Source: Candidatus Omnitrophota bacterium (GTDB taxonomy: Bacteria; Omnitrophota; Gorgyraeia; Gygaellales; Profunditerraquicolaceae). From it: a DNA stretch of 48,031 nt. Below are positions 3,654-47,518 of the stretch, piece by piece (positions within the stretch are counted from its first letter, which is position 1; every line of letters begins with the position of its first letter). The notes under the pieces are model-generated. The model searched no databases and had not been told where the DNA came from. It saw only the letters and a program-made list of their open reading frames with translations. The stretch spans positions 1-48,031 of the forward strand of contig JAPLLU010000091.1 in the NCBI GenBank assembly GCA_026387385.1, in the 5' to 3' direction. The translations under genes were made by a program, and so were the position numbers.

Positions 3654-3668
3654 TTTATAAAGATGGAT

Positions 3669-3770
3669 AAATCCCAAATTCAAAACTCAAGTTTAGCATT
3701 TGGCACTTCGACTATGCTCAGTGCCAATGGTGAGCGCAGTCGAAACATTGGAAATTGGAACTTGGGATTT
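3669..3770 (+). repeat. Family B structured module (copy B1) inside an outer AT-rich stem
   Basis: Core 3697-3751: catttggcac TTCGACTATGCTC a gtgccaatg gt GAGCGCAGTCGAA acattgg. Outer arms aaatcccaaattcaaaactcaag / ggaaattggaacttgggattt. Confidence 0.85.
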
Positions 3771-3792
3771 AAATGTCATTAAATAACTCTCC

Positions 3793-5298
3793 TTATAAAC
3801 TCTCTATCTTATTCAGGGCGTTTATGTATGCCCTTACCGATGCCTCAATAATATCCGTGCTTGAGCCGCGCGCAGTCACTACCCTGCCTTTAGCTTTCAA
3901 CTTCAGACTTACCTCTCCAAGTGCATCCTTGCCCTTCGTAACTGCTTCGATACGATAATCCTGAAGTTCTCCTTTTATTCCGGTAATTTTGTCTACTGCC
4001 TTAAAACAAGCATCCACCGGTCCGTCTCCGGATGACTTTGCTGAAAGGGGTTTATTTTTAAACTTCAAGGTAAGAAAGGCTTCGGGAATAATTTTTGTCC
4101 CGGAATTAATCACGAAACTTTCAAATCTCCAGGTGGACTTAATCAGTTTGATTTCATCCTCAACAATAGAGATTAAATCCTCATCGAATATATTCTTCTT
4201 CTTATCGGCCAGCTCCTTAAAACGCTCGTTAACTTTATCGATTTCTTCCTGAGAAAGAACAAAACCCAGTTCTTTCAATCTTTCGTTTAAGGCATGCCTT
4301 CCCGAATGTTTCCCCAGGACAATGCCCGTTCCCGTGAAGCCGACATCTTCTGGCTTAATGATTTCATAGGTAGAACGCTCTTTTAAAACTCCATCCTGGT
4401 GGATGCCGGATTCATGCCTAAAGGCATTACTGCCGACTATCGCCTTATTAGGAGCGACTACGAATCCGGTTAATTTGCTTACCAGACGAGAAACCTTATG
4501 GATCTGATGCGTGTTAATCTGCGTTTCTACATTAGAGAATATGTCTTTACGCGTCTTAATAGCCATGACAATCTCTTCCATGGAAGCGTTCCCTGCGCGC
4601 TCTCCTATTCCGTTTATAGTGCATTCGACCTGGCGTGCGCCGTTTTTTATCGCTTCCAGGGAATTAGCCACAGCTAACCCTAAATCATTGTGGCAATGCA
4701 CAGAGATAACCGCCCTGTAAATATTGGGGACATTTTCTTTTATAACCTTAATCAAATCTCCGTACTCAACAGGTTCTGCATACCCGACGGTATCGGGGAT
4801 ATTGACGGTGGTAGCGCCTGCGTTGATAACAGCTTCGACAACCTTAAAAAGAAACTGTCGTTCGCTGCGGGAAGCATCCTCAGGAGAAAATTCTACATCC
4901 TCACAAAATTTTCTGGTGTACTTAACTGATTCTACAGCAAGCCTCAGGATTTCTTCTTCTGCTTTTTTTAATTTATACTGCATATGAATCTTGGAAGTAG
5001 CCAGAAACACATGGATGCGGGAGTTTTTCGCGTATTTCACCGCTTCATGTGCTGCATCTATGTCCTGTTTAATTGCGCGTGCGAGGCCGCAGATAACCGG
5101 GCCCTTAATGGATTTGGCGATATTTTTTACCGAATCCAAGTCTCCCTTGCTTGATATGGGAAAACCTGCCTCAATAACATCTACGCCTAAATCTGCCAGT
5201 GCATGCGCAATCTCAAGTTTTTCTGCCGGATTCAGGCTTGCTCCCGGCGCCTGCTCTCCATCGCGTAAAGTTGTATCAAATATAATTATCTTTTCCAT
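3793..5298 (-). CDS. leuA: 2-isopropylmalate synthase
   Basis: 501 aa: IFDTTLRDGEQAPG, HCHNDLGLAVANSLEA, and a C-terminal LeuA dimerisation/regulatory domain. Confidence 0.92.
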   Translation of the reverse strand: MEKIIIFDTTLRDGEQAPGASLNPAEKLEIAHALADLGVDVIEAGFPISSKGDLDSVKNIAKSIKGPVICGLARAIKQDIDAAHEAVKYAKNSRIHVFLATSKIHMQYKLKKAEEEILRLAVESVKYTRKFCEDVEFSPEDASRSERQFLFKVVEAVINAGATTVNIPDTVGYAEPVEYGDLIKVIKENVPNIYRAVISVHCHNDLGLAVANSLEAIKNGARQVECTINGIGERAGNASMEEIVMAIKTRKDIFSNVETQINTHQIHKVSRLVSKLTGFVVAPNKAIVGSNAFRHESGIHQDGVLKERSTYEIIKPEDVGFTGTGIVLGKHSGRHALNERLKELGFVLSQEEIDKVNERFKELADKKKNIFDEDLISIVEDEIKLIKSTWRFESFVINSGTKIIPEAFLTLKFKNKPLSAKSSGDGPVDACFKAVDKITGIKGELQDYRIEAVTKGKDALGEVSLKLKAKGRVVTARGSSTDIIEASVRAYINALNKIESL

Positions 5299-5316
5299 AT
5301 ATTAACCTACTCTTGA

Positions 5317-5433
5317 GGTTGTAAGTTGCAGATTCAAGTTTAGTGGGTGGCACGGGGATGCTTCGCAGCGCGTCTTAGCGCAAGAAGCGCCCCGTGACAG
5401 GACCCGCTAAACGCGTACGTGCAACTTATAACC
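5317..5433 (+). repeat. Family C hairpin element (copy C1) with an extra outer stem
   Basis: Core 5339-5412: tttagtgggtggc-acgggg-[loop]-ccccgt-gacaggacccgctaaac. Outer stem ggttgtaagttgca / tgcaacttataacc. It fills the ilvC-leuA gap. Confidence 0.88.
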
Positions 5434-5435
5434 TT

Positions 5436-6428: not shown

Positions 6429-6437
6429 ACTTCCTCC

Positions 6438-6624
6438 TTAAATGAGCACTTGATTTATGGAGCCTATAAAGGCGACATAAATCAATCTTCTATGAGACAC
6501 TATCCTGTTTGTGCGAATTTAACCCCTCACTCAGAGACGTTATAGAGTGTAATTCGATATCTGAGTGAGGGGTGAGTTCGGCCAAATAACTTATGTCGCA
6601 CTACGCGCTCCATAAGTTATGGCC
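6438..6624 (+). repeat. Family F tripartite structured repeat (copy F-C)
   Basis: ttaaatgagc + hairpin (ttgatTTATGGAGC..GCGACATAAatcaa) + gcgaattt + hairpin (aacccctcactcaga..tctgagtgaggggt) + gagttcgg + hairpin (ataacTTATGTCGC..gCTCCATAAgttat). It fills the ilvN-ilvC gap and abuts the ilvC RBS. Confidence 0.88.
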
Positions 6625-6628
6625 TCAC

Positions 6629-7102: not shown

Positions 7103-7130
7103 TCGTCGCTCTCGCTCCTCAATCTTAGAA

Positions 7131-7264
7131 CGTAAAGCGCAAAACGTAAAGTTACAACGCCTGCCTGACGGCAGTCAGGTAAAACTTAAAACGTTTTAAG
7201 TTTTTAGCTTTCCTGCCTACCGGCAGTCAGGAGTTTTTCGCTTTTCGCTTTACACTTTACGCTT
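7131..7264 (-). repeat. Family A palindromic repeat, long form (copy A1), inverted relative to A2-A5
   Basis: Its reverse complement aligns along the full length with A3 (about 88% by eye). Ends are agcgtaaagtgtaaag / ctttacgct. It contains two cctgNctgccgNNaggcagg palindromes. It fills the ilvB-ilvN gap. Confidence 0.9.
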
Positions 7265-7265
7265 A

Positions 7266-8930: not shown

Positions 8931-8957
8931 TATTATACTCCGAAATAAATTACAGAA

Positions 8958-9005
8958 GTCCACAGTCCACAGTCAACGGTCCGCAATGGACTGTTGACTG
9001 TCGAC
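8958..9005 (+). repeat. Family D octamer-repeat hairpin (copy D1)
   Basis: gtccacagtccacagtcaacggtcc gcaat ggactgttgactgtcgac. It fills the ilvD-ilvB gap. Confidence 0.85.
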
Positions 9006-10669: not shown

Positions 10670-10696
10670 AATTTATCTCCTTCTAAATATACATGT

Positions 10697-10810
10697 AGCG
10701 TAAAGTGTAAAACGTAAATCGAAAAACTCCTGCCTGCCGGCAGGCAGGGAAACTTAAAACTCAAAACTTTAAGCTTTAACTTTACGCTTTTCGCTTTAAG
10801 CTTTACGCTT
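10697..10810 (+). repeat. Family A palindromic repeat, short form (copy A2)
   Basis: agcgtaaagtgtaaaacgtaaatcgaaaaact-CCTGCCTGCCGGCAGGCAGG (perfect 20-bp palindrome, 10729-10748)-...ctttacgcttttcgctttaagctttacgctt. It lies between the aldolase gene and ilvD. Confidence 0.9.
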
Positions 10811-10811
10811 T

Positions 10812-13125: not shown

Positions 13126-13137
13126 CTTATAATTATA

Positions 13138-13168
13138 GGCTCAAAGCTCCAGGCTCCAGGCTCCAAGC
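13138..13168 (+). repeat. Family E heptamer-repeat element, single arm (copy E1)
   Basis: ggctcaaagctccaggctccaggctccaagc (GCTCCAG units). It ends in ctccaagctatgtgcc, which resembles the E2 and F terminus ctccaNaNcttatgtcc. Confidence 0.7.
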
Positions 13169-14415: not shown

Positions 14416-14435
14416 TTATTCTCCTTAACAATTTC

Positions 14436-14588
14436 TTGGCTTCAAGCTGCAAGACTCAAGATTCAAACTTCATGACTCAGGCTTCAGGAAGAATTAAGTT
14501 AGGAGTTCGGAGTTTTGAGTTTGGAGTTATACTCCTAGCTCCAGACTCCTAACTCCAAGCTTATGTCCTGTATCTTATAGCTTGTGGC
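14436..14588 (+). repeat. Family E heptamer-repeat hairpin element (copy E2)
   Basis: Central imperfect hairpin 14497-14554: GGAGTTN x4 (agttaggagttcggagttttgagtttggagt) facing actcctagctccagactcctaact. Terminal box ctccaagcttatgtcc. Confidence 0.8.
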
Positions 14589-14592
14589 AATA

Positions 14593-15665
14593 TTATAATC
14601 TCGCCGCTTCTTTCTTTAATGCCGCTGCCTTATCGGTATTCTCCCAGCTAAACTCTGGTTCCGTCCTGCCAAAATGTCCGTAACAGGCAGTCTTTAAGTA
14701 TATAGGACGCAAAAGGTCTAATGACTTAATCATACCCTGCGGCGTAAGGTCAAAATTTTCCCTGATCTCAGGCATTTATCGGCCAAGCCTGCGGCAACGA
14801 TATTTTTGGCAACATACCTGGCCATATAGGCTGCTGAACGGTCGACCTTCGTGGGATCCTTCCCGGAAAACGCCCCGCCTCCCGGAGCCACTACTCCTCC
14901 GTAGGTATCTACGACGATCTTCCTTCCGGTCATACCTGTATCGGATTGCGGGCCGCCGATAACAAACTTTCCGGTCTCATTAACATAATATTTTGTATCT
15001 TTATCTATATATTCCTTTAATATCGGCTTGGCAATAACATCAATTAACTCCTGACGCGCCTTTTTGGTAATCTTATCACCCGTGGCATCCAGGACCTCTT
15101 CGGTATGCTGACAAGCCAAAACACAAGAATCCACTCTCTTAGGATGGTTATCATGATATTCTACCGCTACCTGAGATTTACTGTCAGGGCCAAGATATTT
15201 TAAGATACCCTTCCTCCTTACTTCAGCCATACGCCTGACTAACTTATGAGCAAGCATTATCGGTAAAGGCATCAATTCCGGCGTCTCGCGGCAGGCATAA
15301 CCTGTCATAAAACCCTGATCTCCGTCGCCGCCTCTATTTACGCCCTGGGCAATATCCGGTGATTGGCTATGTATTGTATTTATAACTGCGCAGGTATGAT
15401 AATCAAAGCCGTATTTAGAATGAGTATAACCTATCTTTTCTAAAACATCGCGGGTGAGATTATTCACATCTACAAATCCGGTTGTGGTAATTTCACCGCC
15501 GACTATCAATAGCCCCATAGTAACATATGTCTCGCAGGCAACCCTGCCGTAGGGATCCTGCCTTAATACATCATCAAGCACGGCATCGGATATCTGGTCG
15601 CAGACCTTATCAGGGTGGCCCTCACCGACTGATTCAGAGGTGAAAAAATGCTTACGCGTTGCCAT
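14593..15665 (-). pseudogene. metK: S-adenosylmethionine synthetase, disrupted by an internal deletion of about 33 codons plus a frameshift
   Basis: The 311-aa ORF (14730-15665) is MetK-like up to ...[37 protein letters not shown], then runs out of frame into [13 protein letters not shown]. The 60-aa ORF (14593-14775) resumes at [36 protein letters not shown]. The segment equivalent to E. coli [33 protein letters not shown] is missing. Confidence 0.8.
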
Positions 15666-15720
15666 AATTCCTCCTATTCAAGAAAATCGCTTCGCGATAA
15701 CTTCAATGCGATTTTAGAGT

Positions 15721-15753
15721 GGTATAGGAAAGTGTTTTATACTTTCCTATACC
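15721..15753 (-). other. Perfect 13-bp hairpin overlapping the nucleotidyltransferase stop codon, in the metK leader region
   Basis: ggtataggaaagt gttttat actttcctatacc. No T-tract follows it in the transcribed (minus) sense. A second 8-bp hairpin, aaaatcgc...gcgatttt, lies at 15682-15715. Confidence 0.5.
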
Positions 15754-16490
15754 ATAAAAAACTTGTGTTTTGCTTCTTCGTAAAATTTATGGTGCCCAAT
15801 ATCAAACCAGCGGCCATGGAATATAAATGCAAAAACGCGCTCCCGCTTAGTAAGCCAATCTATGTAGAAACCAGTCGCGTCATTGTGCGCGGTTTTAACA
15901 TCAAGATATTCTCTTATTAATTTCAGCTTCTCCTTAGGAAAATAATAAAGGCACATTGCTATAAGCGCTGTCTTTGGCCAGTTTGGTTTTTCCTCGAAAT
16001 CTATCACTCTGTTTTCTTTATCTAACTTAATCACGCCGTATTCCCTTGCTGCATGCAACTTCCTTATATTATAAGCGCCTATCACGGGTTTATTCCTGCG
16101 CGCTTTAGCGAAATCCAAAAAAACATTCAAATCTCCGTCAAACAGGTTATCCCCGCCTATAACCAAAAGGTCATCTTTTATGCGCTTTTTATTTACGGCA
16201 AAGTTCATATCGCCTATTGCCCCGCGCCTGTCGCTATGGGTCTTAGTCAAATCATCAACCAGGCTTATGCGTTTCTTAGTCGGATGCTTAGACGCCCAAA
16301 CTTTAAAGCGCGATATAAATTTAGAGTTTGTAACTACAATTATCTCGTTTATCTGGTCTACTGACTCTAACTTATCAATAATATAATCGATTATTGGCCG
16401 GTGTCTTACCAAAAGAAGCGGCTTGGGAAATTCTTTGGTCAGCGGATATAATCTCCTGGCATAACCTGCCGCTAATATCAGTGCTTTCAT
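15747..16490 (-). CDS. Sugar-1-phosphate nucleotidylyltransferase family protein
   Basis: 247 aa: MKALILAAGYARRLYPLTKEFPKPLL is the NTP-transferase G-loop; IGGDNLF is also present. Confidence 0.8.
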   Translation of the reverse strand: MKALILAAGYARRLYPLTKEFPKPLLLVRHRPIIDYIIDKLESVDQINEIIVVTNSKFISRFKVWASKHPTKKRISLVDDLTKTHSDRRGAIGDMNFAVNKKRIKDDLLVIGGDNLFDGDLNVFLDFAKARRNKPVIGAYNIRKLHAAREYGVIKLDKENRVIDFEEKPNWPKTALIAMCLYYFPKEKLKLIREYLDVKTAHNDATGFYIDWLTKRERVFAFIFHGRWFDIGHHKFYEEAKHKFFMV

Positions 16491-16506
16491 ACTTAACTTC
16501 TCTCGT

Positions 16507-16582
16507 CAACAGTCCACAGACCACAGTCCACAGTCCACAGTTATTGTTTTTCTGTCGACAGTCGACTGTCGACTATGGACTA
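16507..16582 (+). repeat. Family D octamer-repeat hairpin (copy D2)
   Basis: Left arm caacagtccacagaccacagtccacagtccacag (about four CAGTCCAC units). Right arm ctgtcgacagtcgactgtcgactatggactat. A C.C mismatch recurs every 8 nt. Confidence 0.88.
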
Positions 16583-19635: not shown

Positions 19636-19861
19636 TTAATGAGCCCACAACTTACGTAAACATTAGTGAACGTAAGTTGTTTGGGCGAATTGAGCACCTA
19701 AAGCTTTGGTTTGACGAAATCCCTGTGAGCCTAAGCGAACAAGGATAACCCCACACTAGAGCAGTAATAATCAAATCTATTGCTTTCTGGGTGTGGGATA
19801 AGTTCGGACAGATAAGTTATGTCGCATATATCTTTTGCATAAAGCTCCATAACTTATGTCC
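19636..19861 (+). repeat. Family F tripartite structured repeat (copy F-A), with an extra ~50-nt insert
   Basis: ttaatgagc + hairpin (cccacaacttacg..cgtaagttgtttggg) + gcgaatt + insert + hairpin (ccccacac..gtgtggg) + ataagttcggac + hairpin (ataagTTATGTCGC..gCTCCATAActtat) + gtcc. Confidence 0.88.
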
Positions 19862-19865
19862 TTAC

Positions 19866-21585: not shown

Positions 21586-21703
21586 CAGAATTATTCCTCC
21601 TTTGTTAGTATAATCAAGCTAAGCTTAAAGCGCGGTAAGCGACGAACACATCTCTTCCGCCTCAAAACCCTTTAGATTTAGCTTCCTTTTTTAACGCCTT
21701 TTA

Positions 21704-21775
21704 AGCGGCGGACGGGACTTGAACCCGTGACATTCTGCTTGGCAAGCAGACATTCTACCGCTGTATTACCGCCTC
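21704..21775 (-). tRNA. tRNA-Gly (GCC); no encoded CCA; two stem mismatches
   Basis: Minus-strand read: GAGGCGG TA ATAC AGCGGTA GAAT G TCTGC TTGCCAA GCAGA ATGTC ACGGG TTCAAGT CCCGT CCGCCGC T. The cloverleaf fits, except for A2.G71 in the acceptor stem and A12.A23 in the D stem. Confidence 0.75.
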
Positions 21776-21830
21776 TTTATTTCCTAAACCTCTATCGCTT
21801 GACCTTTAAAAAACCTTATCTTAAACGATC

Positions 21831-21915
21831 TGGTGCGGACGGAGGGAGTTGAACCCCCAAGGGTTGCCCCACAAGATCCTAAATCTTGCGCGTATGCCAG
21901 TTCCGCCACGTCCGC
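21831..21915 (-). tRNA. tRNA-Leu (TAG), long variable arm, CCA encoded
   Basis: Minus-strand read: GCGGACG TG GCGGAACTGGCATACGC G CAAGA TTTAGGA TCTTG TGGGGCAACCCTT GGGGG TTCAACT CCCTC CGTCCGC A CCA. Confidence 0.9.
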
Positions 21916-21943
21916 GATAATAAATAAGCGATACGAAAATTTA

Positions 21944-22016
21944 TGAGCCTCCCGCGATTCGAACGCGGCACGGCCATCTTAAAAGGATGGTGCTCTACCA
22001 AATGAGCTAGAGGCCC
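21944..22016 (-). tRNA. tRNA-Lys (TTT); no encoded CCA
   Basis: Minus-strand read: GGGCCTC TA GCTC ATTTGGTA GAGC A CCATC CTTTTAA GATGG CCGTG CCGCG TTCGAAT CGCGG GAGGCTC A. Confidence 0.9.
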
Positions 22017-22026
22017 GAATTTATTC

Positions 22027-22158
22027 AGCGTAAAGTGCAAAGCGAAAAACTCCTGCCTGCCGGTGAGGTAGGAAAGTTAAAAACTTAAAACCTTTTTAGT
22101 TTTACCTGACTGCCGTCAGGCAGGCGTTTTAACTTTACGCTTTAAGCTTTTAGCTTTA
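22027..22158 (+). repeat. Family A palindromic repeat, long form (copy A3)
   Basis: It lies between tRNA-Lys and frr and has the same ends and internal palindromes as A1. Confidence 0.9.
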
Positions 22159-22160
22159 TA

Positions 22161-22721: not shown

Positions 22722-22789
22722 TTTTAATCATCTCCTTCAATAAATAATATTTTTAACAGGCTAATTAATCCTATTCCTTTTATTATCTG

Positions 22790-22879
22790 CCCCGTTAGAA
22801 AAACCGTTATTTATGGCGCAGGGATAAGATTGATTCCTTACAGAAAGCTCGATGTAAAACCCCACCCTTTCTAACGGGG
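22790..22879 (+). repeat. Family G hairpin element (copy G1)
   Basis: Outer stem ccccgttagaaa / tttctaacgggg. The interior atttatggcg...ggga resembles G2. It lies about 60 nt upstream of the frr RBS in transcript sense. Confidence 0.8.
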
Positions 22880-22891
22880 TCTGCTTCGGAA

Positions 22892-23042
22892 TTTATACTC
22901 CGCGGCCTGTAAACCTGCGCCCTTTAGGGCGCGCCCGCCTCACCGGACGGGCAGGGATGGATTGTGGCCGCTTGAGTATCCAGCCTTTAGGGCCCTTAGG
23001 AACCGCCTAAAGGCTTATAGCCTTTAGGCGGGCGCGGGCTCC
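22892..23042 (-). repeat. Family H repeat (copy H1)
   Basis: Its reverse complement (ggagcccgcgcccgcctaaaggctataagcctttaggcggttcctaagggccctaaaggctggatac...gccctaaagggcgcaggtttacaggccgcggagtataaa) aligns end to end with H2. Confidence 0.88.
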
Positions 23043-25270: not shown

Positions 25271-25303
25271 AGTACCTGTCTCCTTTCCGGATTTCAAAAT
25301 TTA

Positions 25304-25402
25304 CCCCGCACCTCGTAAAGCCCCGCCATTTATGGCGGGGATGGAAGGGGTACGCTTAATAAGTCTTCCCTAAAGCCTCGTCCTTTAGGACGAGGTGCGG
25401 GG
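25304..25402 (+). repeat. Family G hairpin element (copy G2)
   Basis: Outer stem ccccgcacctcg / cgaggtgcgggg (perfect 12 bp). Inner hairpins ccccgcca-ttta-tggcgggg and cctcgtcc-ttta-ggacgagg. It lies immediately upstream of rpsB. Confidence 0.88.
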
Positions 25403-25487
25403 TTTACTTATTAATGTAAATTTTCCTTTGAGTTATTGTCAAATTAATCTTTTAGTGTAACATATTATTTCTTAGTTTCAACTGTTT

Positions 25488-27555: not shown

Positions 27556-27562
27556 TTTCGGT

Positions 27563-28480
27563 ATGATTAAGGTCAGAGTAGCCGTGATAGGAACGGGTCA
27601 TCTTGGTAGTATACATGCCAAGATATACAAAGAGATTGAAGCCTGTTCGCTGGTGGCAGTCTGCGATACAGATGAAACCCGCTTAAGCGAAGTATCCCAG
27701 AACCTGAATGTGCGTGGTTACGCTGATTACAGGGAACTTTTTGATAAGGTTGATGCGGTCAGTATAGCAACACCCACCAGGCTGCACTATCAGATTGCAT
27801 ATGATTTCCTAAAACATAATATACACACTCTGGTCGAAAAACCGTTCACCCTGCAGCTAAAAGAAGCTGAATCTTTAATAAAAGTGGCCGGAAGAAGAAA
27901 GCTCATCCTGCAGGTCGGCCATGTGGAAAGGTTCAATTCGGCATTTGCGGCTACACAAAAAATCATTAAGGACCCTAAATTCATTGAATGTCATAGGCTT
28001 AGCCCATTTCCTAATCGTTCGCTGGATATAGGCGTGGTTTTAGACGTAATGATACACGATATAGAAATCGTATTAGGATTAGTCAATTCACCTATAAAAA
28101 AAATTGAAGCGGTAGGCGTACCCGTGCTGACAAATTTTGAGGACATCGCTAATGCCCGTCTTACCTTTAAAAACGGCTGCATATGTAACCTGACTGCCAG
28201 CCGGATATCCGACGAACTGATGCGTAAAATCCGCATATTCCAGAAGAATACCTACATATCGCTGGACTACAAAAATGAAGAAGCGTTTATCTATAAAAAA
28301 ACGCCTTCGGGCATCACAAAAGAAAGCCTCCCCATAGAAAAGGAACAGCCTCTAAAAAAAGAACTCTCCTCATTTGTCGAATGCGTAATCCAGAATAAGC
28401 CCCCTCTTGTTTCAGGTGAAATAGCCAGATACGCCCTGGCAGTAGCCTTTAAAATCTGCAAAGAAATATGGAAAAAATAA
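27563..28480 (+). CDS. Gfo/Idh/MocA-family NAD-dependent oxidoreductase (possibly a UDP-GlcNAc 3-dehydrogenase GnnA-like enzyme, given its lpxB linkage)
   Basis: 305 aa: VAVIGTGHLGSIHAK Rossmann start and the EKP motif (VEKPF). The functional guess rests on gene context only. Confidence 0.75.
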   Translation: MIKVRVAVIGTGHLGSIHAKIYKEIEACSLVAVCDTDETRLSEVSQNLNVRGYADYRELFDKVDAVSIATPTRLHYQIAYDFLKHNIHTLVEKPFTLQLKEAESLIKVAGRRKLILQVGHVERFNSAFAATQKIIKDPKFIECHRLSPFPNRSLDIGVVLDVMIHDIEIVLGLVNSPIKKIEAVGVPVLTNFEDIANARLTFKNGCICNLTASRISDELMRKIRIFQKNTYISLDYKNEEAFIYKKTPSGITKESLPIEKEQPLKKELSSFVECVIQNKPPLVSGEIARYALAVAFKICKEIWKK

Positions 28481-29718
28481 ACCCCGCTCCTCGTCCTAAA
28501 GGACATTTTAATTGCGCCCAACATCCCTGCTCTAAAGAACGTGACTTTACGAGGGGCGGGGTAAACAAAGTCTTGATCGTTGCCGGAGAAGCATCGGGAG
28601 ACCTGCACGCCTCCAATCTGGTTAAAGCTATAAAAAATATTCGCCCACAAATTGAATTTTCCGGTTTAGGAGGAGAAAAACTAAAAGAGGCAGGTGTAGA
28701 TTTATATTTCAATATGGTGGAGCTTGCGGTAGTGGGGTTTCTCGAGGTCTTAAAAAATCTCACAAAATTCCGTAAGATTTTTGCTGGCATCTTGAAAGAA
28801 GTAGACAGGGTTAAACCGGACTTGGCTATATTGGTTGATTATCCGGGATTTAATCTGCGCCTAGCAGAAAAACTTAACAAAAGACGAATCCCCATCATAT
28901 ACTATATCAGCCCCCAGGTCTGGGCTTGGGGCGCAAACAGGATAAAGACTATAAAAAAAGTTATTAGCAGGATGCTCGTTGTCTTTGAATTTGAGGAGGA
29001 CCTTTACAAGAAAAATGCTGTACCGGTATCATTTGTAGGGCATCCCTTGCTTGATGTTGTAAAAACGGATATTGCGAAAGAAGAGCTGTTTCGTAGCTTA
29101 GGGCTTAATGTAAATAATTTCACTTTTGCGCTGCTTCCCGGCTCAAGGGAAAAAGAAGTCACTTCCCTGCTTCCTATAATGCTAGAAACCGCTGGTTTAC
29201 TTTACGAATATTTAGGCAATAATATTCAATTCCTGGTCTTAAGATCAGCTAGCGTAAAAGAAGAAATATTTAACAAGATACTTAAGCGATACAGTTTCCC
29301 GGTACAGATAGTCTCTAATTTGACCTATAATGGATTAGCTGCAAGTAATTTTGCGCTTGTCGCCTCAGGTACAGCTACTCTTGAGACAGCGATATTAGCT
29401 AAGCCCATGGTTATATTATATAAGGTTTCCTTTCTTACCTGGGCTTACCTTAAGCTTATTATAAAAATACCTTATATAGGATTGGTTAATGTCGTCAGGA
29501 AGGAAAAATTTATTGCGGAATTTATACAATATGATGCAAGGCCTAAAAAAATCGCTGATTATATAGCCAGAACTATTAAAGACAATACTGAAATGACCCG
29601 CATTAAAGACGGCCTTTCCGATTTAACATCCAAACTGGGAGAAAAAGGCGCAAGTTCCCGCGCCGCCCAGATTGTCGTAGAAATCCTAGATAAAACTAAA
29701 CCTCAGCCTAAACCTTAA
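28468..29718 (+). CDS. lpxB: Lipid-A-disaccharide synthase; the first ~105 nt of the ORF are repeat G3, so the true start may be TTG at 28573
   Basis: The conserved LpxB sequence begins at VNKVLIVAGEASGDLHASNL (28561 onward). The upstream 31 codons (MEKINPAPRPKGHFNCAQHPCSKERDFTRGG) are encoded by the palindromic element. Confidence 0.85.
   Translation: MEKINPAPRPKGHFNCAQHPCSKERDFTRGGVNKVLIVAGEASGDLHASNLVKAIKNIRPQIEFSGLGGEKLKEAGVDLYFNMVELAVVGFLEVLKNLTKFRKIFAGILKEVDRVKPDLAILVDYPGFNLRLAEKLNKRRIPIIYYISPQVWAWGANRIKTIKKVISRMLVVFEFEEDLYKKNAVPVSFVGHPLLDVVKTDIAKEELFRSLGLNVNNFTFALLPGSREKEVTSLLPIMLETAGLLYEYLGNNIQFLVLRSASVKEEIFNKILKRYSFPVQIVSNLTYNGLAASNFALVASGTATLETAILAKPMVILYKVSFLTWAYLKLIIKIPYIGLVNVVRKEKFIAEFIQYDARPKKIADYIARTIKDNTEMTRIKDGLSDLTSKLGEKGASSRAAQIVVEILDKTKPQPKP
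28482..28561 (-). repeat. Family G hairpin element (copy G3), inverted on the chromosome relative to G2
   Basis: ccccgctcctcgtcctaaaggac...ctttacgaggggcgggg matches the reverse complement of G2 at both ends (gtaaaccccgcNcctcgtcctaaaggac ... ctttacgaggNgcgggg). It starts 2 nt after the oxidoreductase stop codon. Confidence 0.85.
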
Positions 29719-29748: not shown

Positions 29749-29823
29749 TTTAGCGGGTGGCTTGGGTGTTTTTGAAGCCGCGTGATGCGGCTGAAAAAAT
29801 ACCCAAGACAGGACCCGCTAAAC
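29749..29823 (+). repeat. Family C hairpin element (copy C2)
   Basis: tttagcgggtggc-ttgggt-[loop]-acccaa-gacaggacccgctaaac. It lies between the convergent 3' ends of lpxB and the M48 protease gene. Confidence 0.88.
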
Positions 29824-31263: not shown

Positions 31264-31333
31264 CTTAGTCCTCCTTATTAAAGTAATTTCTTGCTATCTT
31301 CTTTGAAAAAATATCCGGATTGAAATCGTTATA

Positions 31334-31361
31334 ATTCTACACAGATTAAAATATTTGTCAA
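31334..31361 (-). promoter_or_regulatory. Candidate sigma70-type promoter for rpmA
   Basis: Minus-sense TTGACA - 16 nt - TAGAAT, then a leader of about 70 nt and an AAGGAGG RBS. Confidence 0.5.
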
Positions 31362-31406
31362 TTAGTTTAGTTATTGCAAAGCGGCAAGCGTTATTGTAGG
31401 TTTTAA

Positions 31407-32546: not shown

Positions 32547-32569
32547 TTATAGCTCCTTAATGGATATAT

Positions 32570-32598
32570 AGTATACTTTAAAAATTAGGAAGTTCCAA
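32570..32598 (-). promoter_or_regulatory. Candidate promoter for the REC-EAL gene
   Basis: Minus-sense TTGGAA - 17 nt - TATACT, followed by an AAGGAG RBS. Confidence 0.35.
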
Positions 32599-32645
32599 CA
32601 AAATAAAGACCAAAAGCACGCCCAAAAAAATTATATTAGCGCTAC

Positions 32646-36293: not shown

Positions 36294-36330
36294 TATCTTA
36301 TAAATTTTACCAGTTAGTATAGCAAATAAT

Positions 36331-36456
36331 GGAGCCCGCCTAAAGGCTATAAGCCTTTAGGGGTTCCCAAGGGCCCCAAAGGCTGGATACTTGAAGCGTC
36401 CAATCTCCTATCCAGAGCCCTAAAGGGCGCAGGTTTAAAGACCGCAAAAGTATAAA
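36331..36456 (+). repeat. Family H repeat (copy H2)
   Basis: ggagcccgcctaaaggctataagcctttaggggttcccaagggccccaaaggctggatac...gccctaaagggcgcaggtttaaagaccgcaaaagtataaa. It lies between the HD-GYP-like gene and the DUF1846 gene. Confidence 0.88.
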
Positions 36457-39817: not shown

Positions 39818-39883
39818 GGTTATAACTATTCTATTCTGCCGTAACTATTATATTCTACTATTAAAATATGATTTATACAATAT

Positions 39884-39916
39884 AAACAAAAACGCCCTAG
39901 AAGATAGGGCGTTTTG
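39884..39916 (-). terminator. Rho-independent terminator downstream of gdhA
   Basis: Minus-sense gcAAAACGCCCTAtcttcTAGGGCGTTTTTgtttata: an 8-11 bp GC-rich stem followed by a T-tract. Confidence 0.8.
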
Positions 39917-39971
39917 CACGAAAACTAAAAAGAAAGATTAAAATATATTCTTTTGTGCTTAACACATAACT

Positions 39972-41309: not shown

Positions 41310-41333
41310 GCTTATCCTCCCCTTTGAATATTT

Positions 41334-41363
41334 ATTCTACCTAATTCCATATTTTATAGGCAA
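41334..41363 (-). promoter_or_regulatory. Candidate sigma70-type promoter for gdhA
   Basis: Minus-sense TTGCCT - 18 nt - TAGAAT, about 25 nt upstream of a GGGGAGGA RBS. Confidence 0.4.
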
Positions 41364-41371
41364 TATACCAT

Positions 41372-41411
41372 AAAAAAAAGCGTCCGACAATGACATAATT
41401 ATCGGACGCCT
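41372..41411 (-). terminator. Rho-independent terminator downstream of the Na/Pi transporter gene
   Basis: Minus-sense aaGGCGTCCGAtaattatgtcattgTCGGACGCtttttttt: an 8-9 bp stem followed by T8. Confidence 0.8.
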
Positions 41412-41529
41412 TTGTCCTTACTAAGTTATAGTAACGATAATAACATAAAAAGTTTGTTCGTCAAGAAAAAATATTATTCGGCTTTGATAAAACAAGTTAA
41501 GATATGCCAGAAGCCTTTTTAATCTGGGC

Positions 41530-43140: not shown

Positions 43141-43182
43141 ACCTATATCTCCTTTATAAAAACTTACCTAAATTTTTTATTA

Positions 43183-43345
43183 TTAGGCCTTGGAACTGTT
43201 TCGTTTCTTAAGATAAACCATTAAAATAGAAATTGCCGTTGGTGTAATCCCGGAAATGCGCGATGCCTGGCCTAAATTAATAGGCTTAAATCTCTCTAGT
43301 TTATCTTTTATTTCTCACAAAAGCCTTAACATTAATACCGTAAAT
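43183..43345 (-). pseudogene. Decayed duplicate of the mnmG 3' end (last ~45 codons), non-functional fragment
   Basis: The reverse complement reads [43 protein letters not shown], against the mnmG C-terminus [40 protein letters not shown]. An in-frame TGA lies at 43315-43317, there is no start codon, and weaker frameshifted similarity continues upstream. Confidence 0.8.
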
Positions 43346-43370
43346 ATATCCCGCTGTCAAGCGCAATTTC

Positions 43371-44045: not shown

Positions 44046-45897
44046 TTATCTTCCTCAGATACACCATTAAGATTGAAATAGCCGCAGGGGTGACTCCAGA
44101 AATGCGCGATGCCTGGCCTAAATTAAGCGGTTTCAATTTATTCAATTTTTCCTTTATCTCGCGGGAAAGGCCGGAGATATCAGCATAATCCAAACCCTGA
44201 GGCAATTTTATCTTCTCTAAATTCCTAAACCTCCCTACTTCTCTTAACTGTCTTTCTATAAACCCGGAATATTTTACCTCAATTTCTATTTGCTGGTAAG
44301 CAAATTCTGGTATATCTAAATTGAGGTGATCCAGGCTTCTTAAATTTACTAGAGTTATCTCTGGCCTCTTCAGGAGCTCCTCTATAGTAACAGGCTTTTT
44401 TATGGGCTTGGTTTTTAAACGCTCCAGCTCCCTGTTAAATTCTAGACTTGGCTTAAGGCGTGTATTTCTTAAAATATTGATTCCCCGCTTTATTGCCTCA
44501 GTTTTCTCTTGTGTCTTCAGGTAATCTTCTTTTGTTATCAAGCCTAAATCATAACCGATTTTATTAAGCCGTAGGTCAGCATTATCTTGGCGTAAAATCA
44601 GGCGATATTCAACCCGAGAAGTAAACATCCTGTATGGCTCATCTGTGCCTTTGGTGGTCAAATCGTCAATTAATACCCCGATATAACTACTCGCCCGGTC
44701 CAAAATAAGCGGCTCTTTGCCTTTTATGCGTAAAGCAGCATTAATTCCGGCAACCAACCCTTGGGCTGCAGCTTCTTCATAACCTGTGGTACCGTTAATC
44801 TGTCCGGACAGATATAAATTTCTGAATAATTTTGTCTCTAAGGTGGGGTAGAGTTGCGTGGGTTCGACTACTGTATGTTCTATCCCATAACCAAACCTGA
44901 TTACTCTTACCTCTTTTAACCCTTCTATGGAATGCAGCATTTCTAATTGCACGTCTTCCGGAAGGCTAGTGGATAAGCCGTTAGGATAAACCTCATCAGT
45001 TTCATAACCTTCCGGTTCTAAAAATATCTGGTGCCTTTCTTTATCCGCAAACTTCACGATTTTATCTTCTATGGAAGGGCAATATCTTACGCCGGTAGCC
45101 TTGATTATTCCGGCATACAAAGGAGAACGGTTGAGATTATTCTTAATAATATTATGTGTATTTTGATTGGTATAAGTAATATGGCAAGGTACCTGCTTCT
45201 GAGTGATTTCTTTAGTTGAGAAAGAAAACGGGCACGGAGAAGGATCTGCCTCCTGGACGATAAGCTTAGAGAAGTCTATCGTTTTCTTATCCAGGCGCGG
45301 ACAGGTCCCGGTCTTAAACCTAAGCAGATTGAACCCCAGTTCTTTTAGGTTTTGCGCCAAACCAAAGGAGGCCGGCTCATTGATCCTGCCTGCGCTAAAA
45401 TGGTTTAAACCCACATGAATAAGCCCGTCTAAAAATGTTCCCGGGCAGATAATTACCGTATCGGAATTAATCGCTTCGTTTTTGTCGGTAACTATCCCTA
45501 TTACTTTTGTGTCATCAATTATTAGTTTTGTTGCTTCCGCTTCCTTTATAAAAAGACGGTCTTCGTTTTCAACTATCTTCTGCATATATTGCTGATATCT
45601 ATATCTATCTACCTGAGCGCGTAAAGATTGCACTGCCTCACCCTTAGAGGCATTTAACATCCTGAATTGAATACCGCAAGAATCTGTTGCATGCGCCATT
45701 TCTCCGCCGAGGGCATCTATTTCTTTTACCAGCTGACCTTTGCCAATACCGCCAATTGCCGGATTACAACTCATCAGGCCTATGGTATTTTTTTTAAAGG
45801 TCACCATAAGCGTGTTACATCCCATCCGGCTAGATGCTAAAGCAGCCTCTATTCCAGCATGCCCTGCGCCAATGACTATAACATCGTATTTATCCAT
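44038..45897 (-). CDS. mnmG: tRNA uridine 5-carboxymethylaminomethyl modification enzyme
   Basis: 619 aa: [47 protein letters not shown]. Confidence 0.93.
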   Translation of the reverse strand: MDKYDVIVIGAGHAGIEAALASSRMGCNTLMVTFKKNTIGLMSCNPAIGGIGKGQLVKEIDALGGEMAHATDSCGIQFRMLNASKGEAVQSLRAQVDRYRYQQYMQKIVENEDRLFIKEAEATKLIIDDTKVIGIVTDKNEAINSDTVIICPGTFLDGLIHVGLNHFSAGRINEPASFGLAQNLKELGFNLLRFKTGTCPRLDKKTIDFSKLIVQEADPSPCPFSFSTKEITQKQVPCHITYTNQNTHNIIKNNLNRSPLYAGIIKATGVRYCPSIEDKIVKFADKERHQIFLEPEGYETDEVYPNGLSTSLPEDVQLEMLHSIEGLKEVRVIRFGYGIEHTVVEPTQLYPTLETKLFRNLYLSGQINGTTGYEEAAAQGLVAGINAALRIKGKEPLILDRASSYIGVLIDDLTTKGTDEPYRMFTSRVEYRLILRQDNADLRLNKIGYDLGLITKEDYLKTQEKTEAIKRGINILRNTRLKPSLEFNRELERLKTKPIKKPVTIEELLKRPEITLVNLRSLDHLNLDIPEFAYQQIEIEVKYSGFIERQLREVGRFRNLEKIKLPQGLDYADISGLSREIKEKLNKLKPLNLGQASRISGVTPAAISILMVYLRKING

Positions 45898-45902
45898 ATA
45901 AG

Positions 45903-46079
45903 AGCGTAAAGTGTAAAGCTAAAAGCGCCTGCCTACCGGCAGGCAGGTAAAGTTAAATCTTAAAACGTAAAACTTTAAGTTTTGAGGGTTGATGGTTCGA
46001 CTACGCTCGCCATCAACCCTCAAGCGAAGTCGAAGGGTTGAGTTTTAGTTTTTCGCTTTACGCTTTAAGTTTTAAGCTT
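45903..46079 (+). repeat. Family A palindromic repeat (copy A4) carrying a nested family-B module
   Basis: The first 83 nt differ from A5 at 4 positions. A block of about 58 nt (45984-46042) is absent from A5, after which the shared tail ttttagtttttcgctttacgctttaag resumes. Confidence 0.92.
45984..46042 (+). repeat. Family B structured module (copy B2), nested in A4
   Basis: gagggttgatgg TTCGACTACGCTC g ccatcaaccctc aa GCGAAGTCGAA gggttgag. The conserved boxes match B1, and the enclosing stem has a completely different but still complementary sequence. Confidence 0.85.
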
Positions 46080-46089
46080 ATTTATTGTA

Positions 46090-47373
46090 CTACTCTTGGG
46101 CGAACTTTACAAGAAGAGGTAGTATCTCTTGGCCCTTCATTTCGCCCAATGAGCCTAGTTTAGCTGCTTTCTCAGAAAAACTTAAAGAGCCATCAGGCTT
46201 AATATTGTTACCTGCGATAAGTAATGGTACGGGGTCGCTTGAGTGGGCCTTAATGTTGCAGACAGTAGAATGGTCGGCCGTTACAGCGATTACGGTGTTA
46301 GCGATATCGAGTTCGAGAAGTAGGTTAGCAAAAAAGAATTTATCTATTGCCTCGATAATCTCTTTCTTCTTGTTAAAATCACCGTCGTGAGCAGGCTCAT
46401 CCGGGCCTTTGATATGCACATAAATACCGTCGTATTTCTTCAGAGAATCTAATGCTATCTTTGCCCAAACAGGATAATCCACATCCAGGTGGCCGCAAGA
46501 CGAAGGCACATCAATTACATCTATACCGGTCAAAAGAGCGATGCCTCTTTCTACAGGCATTTCCACGAATGAACCGAACTTTAAATTATAAAGATCGCCT
46601 ATTTTGGGAAATTGCGGTAGATGGTCACCGGCATCACGGGATAAAATTATATCTGCCGCGAGCTTATTCTCGGAAATCCTTTTCTTATTTACATGGGATT
46701 CCGAAAGCACCTTATGCGATTTCTGCGTAAACTCATTCAAAAGAAGAGCAGCTTCTTTGGCTAGAGGGGAATTCTCATAACCGGGCATAGGTTTTGCTTC
46801 TTCAACAAAATTTTCAAATTTCTCTTTGGCCACGCCGAATACCCCTTCACGGGCATAAGCAGGATCAGTATTAGTTATCCAGCCGGATAATTTAGAGCGC
46901 ATACCTCTTATAACCAGGACTCCTCTATGTCCGATGGTATTCTTAAACTCAAAAGTCGCACTTGACAGCGTAACTTTTGAGTTTATCTCTTTGGATAAAG
47001 CGACTGCCTCTTCGGTGCTTAAATTTCTCCCCACCCTACGGTCTTTTATGGTCTTGGCATCAGATTCAACCGTGGCAAAATTTACACGCAGGGCCAAATT
47101 GCCGTCGTGTATACTTAAACCCTCTGCAAATGCCTCTAAGGGACCTCTGCCTGTATAATATTTGTGCGCATCGTAACCCAAAAGACTTATTACGGCAATG
47201 TCAGACTCAGGGGCAATGCCTTTGGCCACAGGATAGACTAAACCTGTTTTACCTGTTTGTGCGAGCCTGTCTATATTAGGCGTGAGTGCCGCTTCAAGCG
47301 GGGTCTTGTTGCCCAGCTCTTTAATAGGTAAATCACCTAGGCCGTCAAGTACTACGTATAGTATTTTCTTCAT
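46090..47373 (-). CDS. apgM: Cofactor-independent phosphoglycerate mutase, archaeal type
   Basis: 427 aa: MKKILYVVLDGLGD, VHIKGPDEPAHDGD, TADHST. Confidence 0.85.
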   Translation of the reverse strand: MKKILYVVLDGLGDLPIKELGNKTPLEAALTPNIDRLAQTGKTGLVYPVAKGIAPESDIAVISLLGYDAHKYYTGRGPLEAFAEGLSIHDGNLALRVNFATVESDAKTIKDRRVGRNLSTEEAVALSKEINSKVTLSSATFEFKNTIGHRGVLVIRGMRSKLSGWITNTDPAYAREGVFGVAKEKFENFVEEAKPMPGYENSPLAKEAALLLNEFTQKSHKVLSESHVNKKRISENKLAADIILSRDAGDHLPQFPKIGDLYNLKFGSFVEMPVERGIALLTGIDVIDVPSSCGHLDVDYPVWAKIALDSLKKYDGIYVHIKGPDEPAHDGDFNKKKEIIEAIDKFFFANLLLELDIANTVIAVTADHSTVCNIKAHSSDPVPLLIAGNNIKPDGSLSFSEKAAKLGSLGEMKGQEILPLLVKFAQE

Positions 47374-47381
47374 ATCTTTTT

Positions 47382-47509
47382 AGCGTAAAGTGTAAAGATA
47401 AAAACGCCTGCCTACCGGCAGGCAGGTAAAGTTAAAGTTTAAAACGTAAAACTTTAAGTTTTGAACTTTAGTTTTTCGCTTTACGCTTTAAGCTTTAAGC
47501 TTTACGCTT
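47382..47509 (+). repeat. Family A palindromic repeat, short form (copy A5)
   Basis: agcgtaaagtgtaaagataaaaacgcctgcctaccggcaggcaggtaaagttaaag...ctttacgctttaagctttaagctttacgctt. It lies between nrdJ and apgM. Confidence 0.92.
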
Positions 47510-47518
47510 CTTGCGATT

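Follow-up and report, generated by a model that had tools for sequence, protein, structure and literature searches.

The window analysed here, a 48,031-nt metagenome contig of Candidatus Omnitrophota bacterium, carries ~39 housekeeping genes, almost all of them on the minus strand (ilv/leu, glycolysis, the phosphotransferase system (PTS), rpsB-tsf-pyrH-frr, lpxB and mnmG), together with three tRNAs. The closest non-self matches of its IlvD protein are 89% identical and are named Omnitrophica or Omnitrophota. The gaps between these genes hold palindromic repeats of eight families, referred to as A to H, and a perfect 20-nt palindrome with an 8-bp stem and a 4-nt loop, CCTGCCTGCCGGCAGGCAGG, which is nested in family A and which we refer to as the core. 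In our view, small non-autonomous DNA palindromes have probably colonised the gaps as a nested community, and the functions that move or copy them would be encoded elsewhere.

Structured palindromic repeats in the gaps of the window

By our count, the window contains five copies of family A, two each of families B, C, D, G and H, two of family E with one extra array, three of family F with a terminal remnant, and seven nested 20-21-nt cores plus a degenerate one (Table 1). An earlier sequence-only reading of this DNA had arrived at the close figure of 22 copies in eight families, at a density above the classical content of repetitive extragenic palindromic (REP) sequences and bacterial interspersed mosaic elements (BIME), and its statement on density holds. 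The elements total ~2.2-2.4 kb by our own sum, roughly half of the ~4.6 kb of non-coding DNA. Copies at distant sites are 79-91% alike over 66-85 nt when the window is compared with itself, and the minimum free energy (MFE) of the repeat-bearing gaps lies at z scores of -3 to -8.5 relative to dinucleotide shuffles, compared with +1.3 to -3.9 for the presumed promoter and terminator gaps. The structured palindromic repeats described earlier were thus seen again directly, by self-comparison and by folding. The five gaps that had been set apart as promoter or terminator gaps fall into two groups. For three of them (27419-27562, 31264-31406 and 32547-32645) the z score lies between +1.3 and -1.2; the remaining two, 39818-39971 (z -2.2) and 41310-41529 (z -3.9), each carry a GC hairpin followed by T's, which we read as a putative terminator.

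Tandem repeats are a further property of the gaps. Period 7 was found in 13 of the 14 tandem arrays of the window (Tandem Repeats Finder, at least three copies), and all of the arrays are intergenic. The word period is 7 and not 7-8, as had been proposed, and the word given as CAGTCCAC is AGTCCAC repeated n times. The other structural claims, namely that the families are modular and share sub-modules and that their arms can pair in several registers, are true as stated.

All elements sit near stop codons, between co-directional or convergent genes, at distances from direct abutment to a few tens of nucleotides. This position, the great stability of the hairpins and the location of family B copy 2 between two convergent genes are what would be expected if the hairpins had been selected where they stand as functional signals in RNA or DNA, for example to stabilise intra-operon mRNA, to process or attenuate transcripts, to terminate transcription in both directions or to keep translation coupled across a gap, their repetition arising by convergent or concerted evolution. 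Downstream of genes, moreover, REPs are believed to function as RNA elements (PMC3733652). However, both strands fold about equally well, with no consistent strand difference, and most repeat hairpins have no following T-run when the sense-strand sequences are read by eye; by the same reading, hairpins with a T-run are confined within the window to the two non-repeat gaps 39818-39971 and 41310-41529. In addition, Rfam 15 matched only the tRNAs of the window, even at E <= 1. The copies also differ from a CRISPR array, as they are dispersed singly across the gaps and no cas domains were found in the window.

The same junctions in related genomes

An important question is whether the same junctions are occupied in other genomes. 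Five contigs (fetched loci are cited here by L numbers) share the gene order cofD-HPr-ptsI-pgi-NTP-metK-ahcY-pfk-fba-ilvD-ilvB-ilvN-ilvC-leuA-aroE-pilD, mostly continuing to malQ and with an occasional extra gene, and encode IlvD proteins 88-89% identical to that of the window. The comparison of orthologous gaps, which had been suggested by the sequence-only reading, revealed both filled and empty junctions among these five relatives. In L225, most of the compared junctions are 4-nt overlaps or no longer than ~20 nt. Most junctions of L001 are empty, two carry palindromic arrays of other words, and one carries a short period-8 array with no partner arm. Many junctions of L224 are occupied by further words with a period of 6 or 7, and family F is present at cofD-HPr and ilvN-ilvC, as in the window, while L002 has a core flanked by CAGTTTA words at cofD-HPr. 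The ilvN-ilvC junction is short and without family F in L001, L002 and L225, the same three contigs in which ilvD and ilvB overlap by 4 nt; the fba-ilvD junction measures 1 nt in L223 and L225, and ahcY and pfk overlap by 4 nt in L001, L002, L223 and L225. Since the junctions are empty or differently filled in relatives, the elements are dispensable and turn over at genus-level divergence.

The sole close comparison was provided by L341, a 1.4-kb contig from a freshwater-sediment metagenome; a search with Frr for closer relatives yielded short contigs only. L341 is 91.5% identical to window positions 21703-22931 at the DNA level, and the two frr products are 95.7% identical. The family A copy between tRNA-Lys and frr is retained in L341 with conserved termini, but both cores are missing: the absence of the second is a clean 20-nt gap (GTTTTA[CCTGACTGCCGTCAGGCAGG]CGTTTTA in the window versus GTTTTA-AGTTTTA in L341), and that of the other amounts to ~20 nt. 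The family A arms of the two contigs differ by 14 nt, that is, by two heptamer units. In the next gap, only the window has the core-like 22-mer at 22934-22955, and only L341 has a different insert of ~105 nt, which contains a AAGCGAAGTCGA-type motif.

These data bear on two alternatives. Selection of the hairpins as signals in place is difficult to reconcile with junctions that are empty in syntenic relatives such as L225, or with different families at the same junction in different genomes. This is the main rival of the colonisation reading, and it is weakened by the empty junctions and by the copies inside genes described below; we regard it as unlikely as a general explanation, but it may apply to individual copies, such as the core kept upstream of one gene in four viral contigs (see below). 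The second alternative is that the repeats arose artificially during assembly or sequencing, for example as chimeric joins or as palindromes derived from adapters, since the window is a metagenome contig whose proteins have no record elsewhere and library artefacts can yield palindromes. The artefact explanation is highly improbable: family A lies at tRNA-Lys/frr in the independent contig L341 and family F at the same two junctions in L224, the copies differ by substitutions with compensatory pairs kept, the core is found in three isolate genomes (Christiangramia, Algibacter and Lutimonas) and a Saccharibacteria-labelled chromosome, and the reading frame is continuous across in-gene cores.

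Family F

Family F is a conventional element similar to miniature inverted-repeat transposable elements (MITEs). Outside the window, copies were found in L223, L224, L329, L061 and L118, and the alignment comprised eight copies, the three window copies and five others (L223, L224, L329 and L118). The plan begins with a left terminal inverted repeat (TIR), (G/A)TGAGG(A/C)CATAAGTTATGGAGC, followed by a variable loop and a return arm; then come CGAACTTACCCC, a variable central hairpin and GGGGTTAATTCGC, and finally a second box hairpin and the right TIR, ...GCTCAT. The TIRs, with the end sequence GTGAGGACATAAGTTATGGAGC, are 20-22 bp long, the three internal hairpins are conserved, no open reading frame (ORF) is present, and the mapped copies measure 137-254 bp (about 140-250 bp).

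In the three window copies and those of L061, L329, L223 and L224, a T-N-A triplet is present on all 14 flanks, and four of the seven flank pairs are identical, which suggests that family F inserts at T-N-A sites. In the window copies, as in the L223 and L224 copies whose neighbouring gene was mapped, the upstream gene contributes its stop codon as one of the two flanking triplets; the element thus sits exactly at this stop codon and leaves the upstream gene undisrupted. The first box hairpin is 99% paired across the alignment; both partners have changed in 4 of its 14 pairs and a single partner in none, a degree of pairing and covariation reached by none of 500 shuffles. The lack of one-sided (G-U type) changes is a further argument against selection for an RNA signal. 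Together with the equal folding of both strands, these strictly Watson-Crick compensatory changes suggest that palindromy is kept at the DNA level. Additional small inserts concentrate in the box loops, and the insert in the loop of L118, another Omnitrophota genome, is the 20-nt core. Moreover, the GGAGTTN words of family E begin directly at an F-type box remnant, from which we infer that some heptamer arrays, at least, may have grown out of element ends.

The position of family F relative to the downstream genes was also recorded. The HPr start (19634) lies 4 nt and the ilvC start 13 nt (6429-6441) from the ends of family F copies of 187-227 nt. Where family F is absent, the cofD-HPr junction is 3-5 nt long (L001, L223 and L225) and the ilvN-ilvC junction 12-20 nt (L001, L002 and L225). 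Hairpin folding might bring the ends of family F together for translation of the downstream gene.

Family A and heptamer arrays

Families A, D and E have heptamer arms, with termini shared among the members of each family. The family A arm, AGCGTAAAGTGTAAAGNNAAAA, was detected in at least 120 metagenome contigs from many samples, in each case as a hairpin with TTTACGC-type words on the opposite arm. A core lies within 80 nt of only one of 128 such arms, and hence the cores in the window copies are secondary inserts; the hairpin tips of the metagenome copies carry assorted other small GC hairpins. An exact 20-nt difference also exists within the window between family A copies that have the second core (AGCTTT[core]AGTTTTTCGC) and those that lack it (AACTTT-AGTTTTTCGC). 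One highly conserved subfamily occurs in contigs encoding a Pfk that shares 85-90% identity with proteins named Candidatus Atribacteria, as opposed to only 48% with the Pfk of the window. In L237 (2837-8026), an Atribacterota-like contig, two inverted family A copies bracket a single ORF of 1694 codons.

The preference for period 7 extends beyond the window: it accounts for 17 of 26 arrays in relatives and for 110/184, 59/155 and, among the family A loci, 423/589 arrays in loci selected by the core or by family A, compared with 1/10 in control loci. At distances of up to 50 nt from cores, heptamer arrays show a 5- to 10-fold enrichment. In L125 and L188, a GC-rich viral contig, cores lie inside GGTGAGA / CCTCTAA heptamer arrays; the association of cores with heptamers is thus not limited to AT-rich genomes. 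Intergenic heptamer repeats are in excess across bacteria, and polymerase slippage has been proposed as their source (PMC4692102, citing Mrazek 2007). The eight families are not equivalent, a point on which the sequence-only reading needs revision, since family F is conventionally MITE-like and the heptamer arms match this known general bias. However, the sequence of family A is conserved across at least two phyla, and it is therefore not a purely local product of slippage.

The 20-nt core palindrome across phyla

The families listed in the sequence-only reading are real, but the 20-nt palindrome inside family A, a separate element of several phyla, had not been singled out. It was sought in the species genomes of the Genome Taxonomy Database (GTDB; one genome per species) with the pattern CCTGCCTNNCGGCAGNCAGGNAAA, whose NAAA tail restricts the sample to a subset of cores. 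At least 119 loci were found, compared with ~1 expected by chance for 20 fixed bases (our estimate); like family A arms and family F copies, the core is thus not confined to the window. Among the matches listed, the carriers represent, by record title, about a dozen phyla: many Patescibacteria lineages, nine Omnitrophota, one Nanoarchaeia metagenome-assembled genome, Bacteroidota including the isolates Christiangramia antarctica, Algibacter amylolyticus and Lutimonas halocynthiae, as well as Planctomycetota, Nitrospirota, several proteobacterial labels, Bdellovibrionales, Bacillota, Spirochaetia, Ignavibacteria and Schekmanbacteria. The core was also present in a 1.14-Mb record deposited as a Saccharibacteria chromosome.

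In IMG/VR, a tail-less pattern detected 84 core stretches, a good part of which are perfect palindromes; one 29.5-kb contig holds as many as six copies. By comparison, two matched control palindromes composed of other 4-nt words gave nine and seven stretches, none perfect. A generic process generating word palindromes was rejected as the origin of the core, as the controls were ~10 times rarer and never perfect. A search of plasmids totalling 7.3 Gb and of cultured phages totalling 2.3 Gb yielded no perfect copy, and Rfam gave no match at the cores of 18 loci from several phyla.

Copies within a genome share longer flanks, while copies from different genomes have no more than the core in common. 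Positions 9 and 16 co-vary (C-G; T-A in 11 cases; A-T), and a G8->A variant recurs 23 times. The NAAA tail was rejected as a part of the core, as just 4 of the 94 sites of the viral set, which is unbiased with respect to flanks, have it. Location at the apex of a host palindrome was likewise dismissed as a general claim: it was seen in single cases only (L076, L165, L015 and L079), and the flank complementarity of cores did not differ significantly from that of random positions (p = 0.6 and 0.96).

The core is free of stop codons in all six frames, and 25 of 122 core sites fall within stop-free ORFs of at least 200 codons, ~15 of them in recognisable genes according to our reading of the list. 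Fourteen of the 25 are translated as xLP(A/V)GRQx. In-frame cores were found within gyrA, polA and aroC, and the coding frame continues across them; the core segment adds seven residues to GyrA relative to GyrA of S. aureus and three to chorismate synthase. Core copies inside coding genes cannot be terminators. In L040 (Staskawiczbacteria), the LPAGRQV peptide occurs twice in one RluA-like ORF, which suggests that this protein gained a core-derived segment twice.

Other small GC-rich hairpins recur beside cores and in family A tips across phyla (e.g., L004, L013, L045, L075, L101, L248 and L252), among them GTCCGCC-N3-5-GGCGGAT, TCCCGC-N-GCGGGA, TCCCGATAGCTATCGGGA and ATCGCTTCGCGAT; the forms GTCCGCC-N4-GGCGGAC and CCCGC-N-GCGGG also occur beside the core. 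They may represent further families of micro-elements.

It is possible, and we propose it only tentatively, that there is a pool of very small mobile elements, CCTGCCTGCCGGCAGGCAGG and at least one family of heptamer-armed hairpins (AGCGTAAAGTGTAAAG...) among them, which spreads horizontally across Patescibacteria, Bacteroidota, Omnitrophota, Atribacterota, Planctomycetota, Nitrospirota, a Nanoarchaeia archaeon and viruses, inserting into repeats and in frame into essential genes and driven by a widespread, unlinked mobilising activity. Alternatively, the 20-nt palindrome, and perhaps the family A arm, could be a sequence that a widely conserved system for handling DNA recognises (for instance in uptake, in recombination or partition, or through binding of a nucleoid protein) and that accumulates by molecular drive and not by transposition. 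Uptake sequences are both genic and intergenic and open in all six frames, as the core is; in addition, the core is identical across many phyla with few recurrent variants, no transposase is linked to it, many carriers belong to groups, such as Patescibacteria and Omnitrophota, believed to depend on imported DNA, and the window encodes a prepilin peptidase. However, most recovered loci contain one core per 8 kb, compared with a typical density of roughly one uptake sequence per kb, and discrete 20-nt indels within another repeat look like insertions and not like drift by point mutation. We also know of no recognition system common to Bacteroidota, Patescibacteria, Planctomycetota, an archaeon and viruses, and we consider a recognition sequence improbable.

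Search for a mobilising enzyme

Another question concerns the source of the proposed mobilising activity. As the sequence-only reading had stated, the window has no mobility gene: Pfam revealed no transposase, RAYT, integrase or Y1/HUH domain in any of its 39 ORFs, and tblastn with E. coli RayT found no match in it. The search was extended to 2.5 Mb of fetched loci with E. coli RayT and the RAYT of L079 as tblastn queries. Two RAYT-like genes were detected, L079:3264-3800 (Planctomycetales) and L056:740-1650 (Chitinophagales), both less than 300 nt from a core, for which we roughly estimate p at about 0.006 by position alone; in L079, 26 nt separate the end of the core from the start codon that follows it. 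A weak RayT match in L270 was discarded as a transposase because of its AAA ATPase context. No autonomous insertion sequence (IS) with family F ends is present in the fetched loci.

Several of these results weigh against colonisation by mobile palindromes. No mobilising gene lies within the window, RAYT-like genes number only two in 2.5 Mb, and each of the two is flanked by its own, different inverted repeats; on these results from the window and the fetched loci, RAYT was set aside as a candidate mover of the core. Clustering of the ORFs within 1.5 kb of cores produced no family present in more than five of ~200 loci. No target-site duplication is evident for family A or the core, and T-N-A is merely the stop codon in half of the 14 family F flanks. 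Family B, known from two copies only, had no copy in any other fetched locus and may be something different. The comparison with L341 cannot tell gain of the core from its loss. Four viral contigs (L127, L170, L153 and L174) have a small conserved phage gene (M.D.L...NA.GPK...QH) in common, and in all of them the core lies 10-45 nt upstream of its start, with flanks only ~75% identical around the retained core, and a position kept in this way fits selection on function as well as mobility. Finally, mobility is deduced from comparisons, no transposition event having been observed directly.

Nevertheless, repetition, structure, nesting, presence or absence among relatives and wide distribution are all directly observed, and we retain colonisation by small mobile palindromes as the best explanation, in which movement in trans, the kind of enzyme involved and possible effects on mRNA are inferences. 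Under this explanation, the elements would be gained, lost and remodelled much faster than the neighbouring genes, in three layers. The first would be the MITE-like family F; the second, the heptamer-armed hairpins, whose interiors would change by gain or loss of 7-nt units through slippage and by nested insertion; and the third, the core, as an independent micro-element resembling REPs or small dispersed repeats (SDRs). Tolerance of the elements could be due to their landing between a stop codon and the next ribosome-binding site, the lack of an ORF, self-folding on either strand and the stop-free core.

Individual elements and neighbouring genes

The coordinates of the elements are presented in Table 1. 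The motif of family C is also found in the nested insert at 45984-46042.

Table 1 Palindromic elements in the gaps of the window, with nested cores, flanks and related copies
Position	Element	Location	Cores, flanks and related copies	MFE z
3690..3760	Family C hairpin, TCGACT[AG][CT]GCTC... / ...GAGC..AGTCGA	aroE-leuA junction		-1.8 (gap; weak)
5339..5411	Family B long hairpin, TTTAG(T/C)GGGTGGC + variable inner stem + GACAGGACCCGCTAAA	ilvC-leuA junction		-7.0 (gap)
6442..6628	Family F copy 1, three hairpins, MITE-like	ilvN-ilvC junction	Flanks TAA (6439-6441) and TCA (reverse complement of ilvN stop codon)	-7.3 (gap)
7121..7265	Family A copy 1, heptamer-armed palindrome		Two cores, 7160-7179 and 7212-7231; 91% complementary over 85 nt to copy at 22066-22150	-6.5
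8957..9005	Family D palindrome, (AGTCCAC)n vs (GTCGACA/GTTGACT)n	ilvD-ilvB junction		
10696..10811	Family A copy 2	Extends to fba stop codon	Core 10729-10748	
13137..13167	Family E half-array, AGGCTCC x 4.7	Immediately 3' of ahcY stop codon		
14441..14580	GCTTCAA-type heptamer array (14441-14486) + family E palindrome GGAGTTN / NAACTCC (14497-14561) + F-type terminal box remnant ...CTCCAAGCTTATGTCCTG	metK-ahcY junction		
16505..16573	Family D copy 2, (GTCCACA)x5.3 vs (CTGTCGA)x3.3	pgi-NTP-transferase junction		
19639..19865	Family F copy 2 (227 nt)	cofD-HPr junction	Flanks TTA (19636-19638) and TTA (reverse complement of cofD stop codon)	
22024..22160	Family A copy 3	tRNA-Lys/frr	Cores 22052-22072 (21-nt variant) and 22105-22124	
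22895..23040	G/H cluster, GC-rich TTTA-loop hairpins		Degenerate core-like 22-mer 22934-22955; inverted copy of 36330-36450, 85-93%	
25298..25415	Family G long hairpin, ACCCCGCACCTCG...CGAGGTGCGGGGT + nested small hairpins		Related sequences in L224	
25491..25627	Family F copy 3, short form		Flanks TTA (25488-25490) and TTA (reverse complement of ABC-transporter stop codon)	
28472..28570	Family G copy 2, inverted relative to 25298-25415	gfo/lpxB junction, inside lpxB ORF	L327 ~84 nt shorter than window between anchor points flanking this copy	
29749..29822	Family B copy 2	Between convergent lpxB and M48 peptidase genes		-5.2
36330..36450	Family H cluster		Inverted copy of 22902-23033	
45900..46082	Family A copy 4		Core 45928-45947; nested C-type hairpin 45984-46042	-6.95
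47380..47510	Family A copy 5		Core 47407-47426; 95% identical over 83 nt to copy 4	

Several gene and gap boundaries of the sequence-only reading had to be revised. The start of HPr, placed there at 19697, is at 19634, with family F copy 2 occupying 19639-19865. Family G copy 2 had been missed because the lpxB ORF reads through it: this ORF starts inside or upstream of the copy (28468-28570), and its Pfam LpxB match begins only at residue 35, so that either the start has been mis-called or the repeat encodes a putative N-terminal extension of ~33 residues. The gap 43141-43370 had been counted among the palindromic repeats and instead contains a degenerate copy of the mnmG 3' end. Positions 43205-43323 are 76% identical to 44051-44169 and represent a stop-containing copy of the last ~39 codons of mnmG, downstream of a small Fer4 gene, suggesting that the Fer4 gene was inserted beside mnmG with duplication of the mnmG 3' end.

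The region of metK (14593-15665) is more complicated. Homology to MetK of relatives is found at residues 1-299 in one frame and at residues 333-390 in another, with ~33 codons missing and a frame change near 14766-14769, and runs to the stop codon ending at 14593. The apparently disrupted metK is either a pseudogene or an assembly error. The gap 14416-14729, previously taken as wholly non-coding, is thus partly coding, and the elements at 14441..14580 belong to the metK-ahcY junction. No S-adenosylmethionine (SAM) riboswitch was detected upstream of metK. Its leader (15666-15746), which had been listed as free of repeats, holds a small ATCGCTTCGCGAT hairpin that recurs in other loci. A 55-nt stretch at 15707-15761, which includes the stop codon and last codons of the NTP-transferase gene, is 91% identical to L327:3571-3623, where it lies at a different junction (lpxB/M48 instead of NTP-transferase/metK), and may be another small dispersed family.

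Comparison with known systems

On our best reading, the closest known systems to these palindromes are REPs and cyanobacterial SDRs. REP families are usually regarded as species- or genus-specific. Some of them have been reported in several species; REPs and REPINs are short palindromes mobilised by RAYT tyrosine transposases, and REP superfamilies carry a GTAG or CGTC tag, the CGTC type also having A-T as its first two stem pairs and a CCA tail (PMC3116915 for mobilisation; PMC3733652 for all of these features). The core resembles REPs in its size (20 nt with an 8-bp stem and a 4-nt loop, within the class of 20-40 bp hairpins), its many extragenic copies and its occasional intragenic position, including replication and repair genes. 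Similarly, the window elements are multi-copy, lie mostly 3' of genes between co-directional or convergent ORFs, as do REPs and BIMEs, and are hotspots for nested insertions. Family A copies 1 and 3, with two cores, one per arm, recall the inverted pairs that REPs often form inside a larger hairpin (REPINs), while copies 2, 4 and 5 carry one. In contrast to REPs, the core lacks a GTAG or CGTC tag, an A-T stem opening and a CCA tail, and its flanks are unconserved (124 core matches); its stem opens with C-G pairs, and GTAG occurs only inside the G8->A variant and not at the foot of the stem. Moreover, the identical 20-mer is found across phyla, and no cognate RAYT was found in the window or in the 2.5 Mb of fetched loci.

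The SDRs of Nostocaceae were reportedly described by Elhai and colleagues in 2008 (Genome Res 18:1484; cited in PMC3116915 and PMC5861425) as very small mobile repeated elements of 21-27 nt; they are said to form hairpins, to be nested in MITEs and heptamer arrays and to be seen as discrete indels. As far as these features go, the core is SDR-like, being a dispersed hairpin of 20-21 nt that is nested in families A and F and appears as a ~20-nt indel relative to L341. Unlike SDRs, for which reports are limited to Nostocaceae, it is present in about a dozen labelled phyla and in viral contigs, with in-frame copies in housekeeping genes. Outside Nostocaceae, no SDRs were found among other HIP1-rich cyanobacteria (PMC5861425).

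Family F shares with MITEs its TIRs, a length (137-254 bp) below ~500 bp, the lack of an ORF, 3-bp T-N-A flanks and multiple copies in several genomes. It differs from them in that the flanking triplets are identical in only four of seven cases and that conserved internal hairpins have loops accepting inserts. Families A, D and E and the core have no signature of TIRs plus duplication, and TIRs of the MITE type were likewise not found in families B, G and H.

The heptamer arrays are comparable to the short tandemly repeated repetitive (STRR) sequences of Calothrix and Nostoc and the GGGAATC arrays of Xanthomonas in their period of 7, their intergenic location, their site-by-site variability among close relatives and the inverted pairs, able to form stem-loops, that they sometimes build. 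Here, however, they usually form two complementary arms of one hairpin with conserved termini. The core also resembles two further kinds of palindromic selfish DNA that insert in frame into genes of AT-rich genomes, the Rickettsia palindromic elements (RPEs) and the GC clusters of yeast mitochondria. Both are longer than the core and restricted to a single lineage, RPE-1 measuring ~100-150 bp. Palindromic insertion in protein-coding genes is described for RPEs (PMC3733652), and the GC clusters of yeast mitochondrial DNA are treated in PMC4478555.

Implications

Analogues are known for each layer of the system, namely MITEs, REPs, heptamers of the STRR type and the SDRs of cyanobacteria. As far as the searchable literature shows, the novel features are one 20-nt palindrome and one heptamer-armed family common to several phyla, the association of the core with heptamer families, and the in-frame insertions of the LPAGRQ type; our literature search found no paper containing the 20-mer or the peptide LPAGRQ and none on Omnitrophota repeats. 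If the core really moves, it would be among the smallest mobile DNA units known, and to our knowledge no other such unit has one sequence across many phyla and viruses. If this is true, the spread of REP- and SDR-like micro-repeats would be testable in cultured Flavobacteriaceae carrying the core.

The elements also affect the annotation of uncultivated lineages, as they inflate ORFs (HPr and lpxB in this case), sit on stop codons and account for extra loop residues such as LPAGRQ in GyrA, PolA and other housekeeping proteins. Finally, the operon junctions of Omnitrophota, tight or overlapping in some relatives, tolerate 50-250 nt of self-folding DNA, and these insertions raise the testable question of how translation of the downstream gene is maintained.

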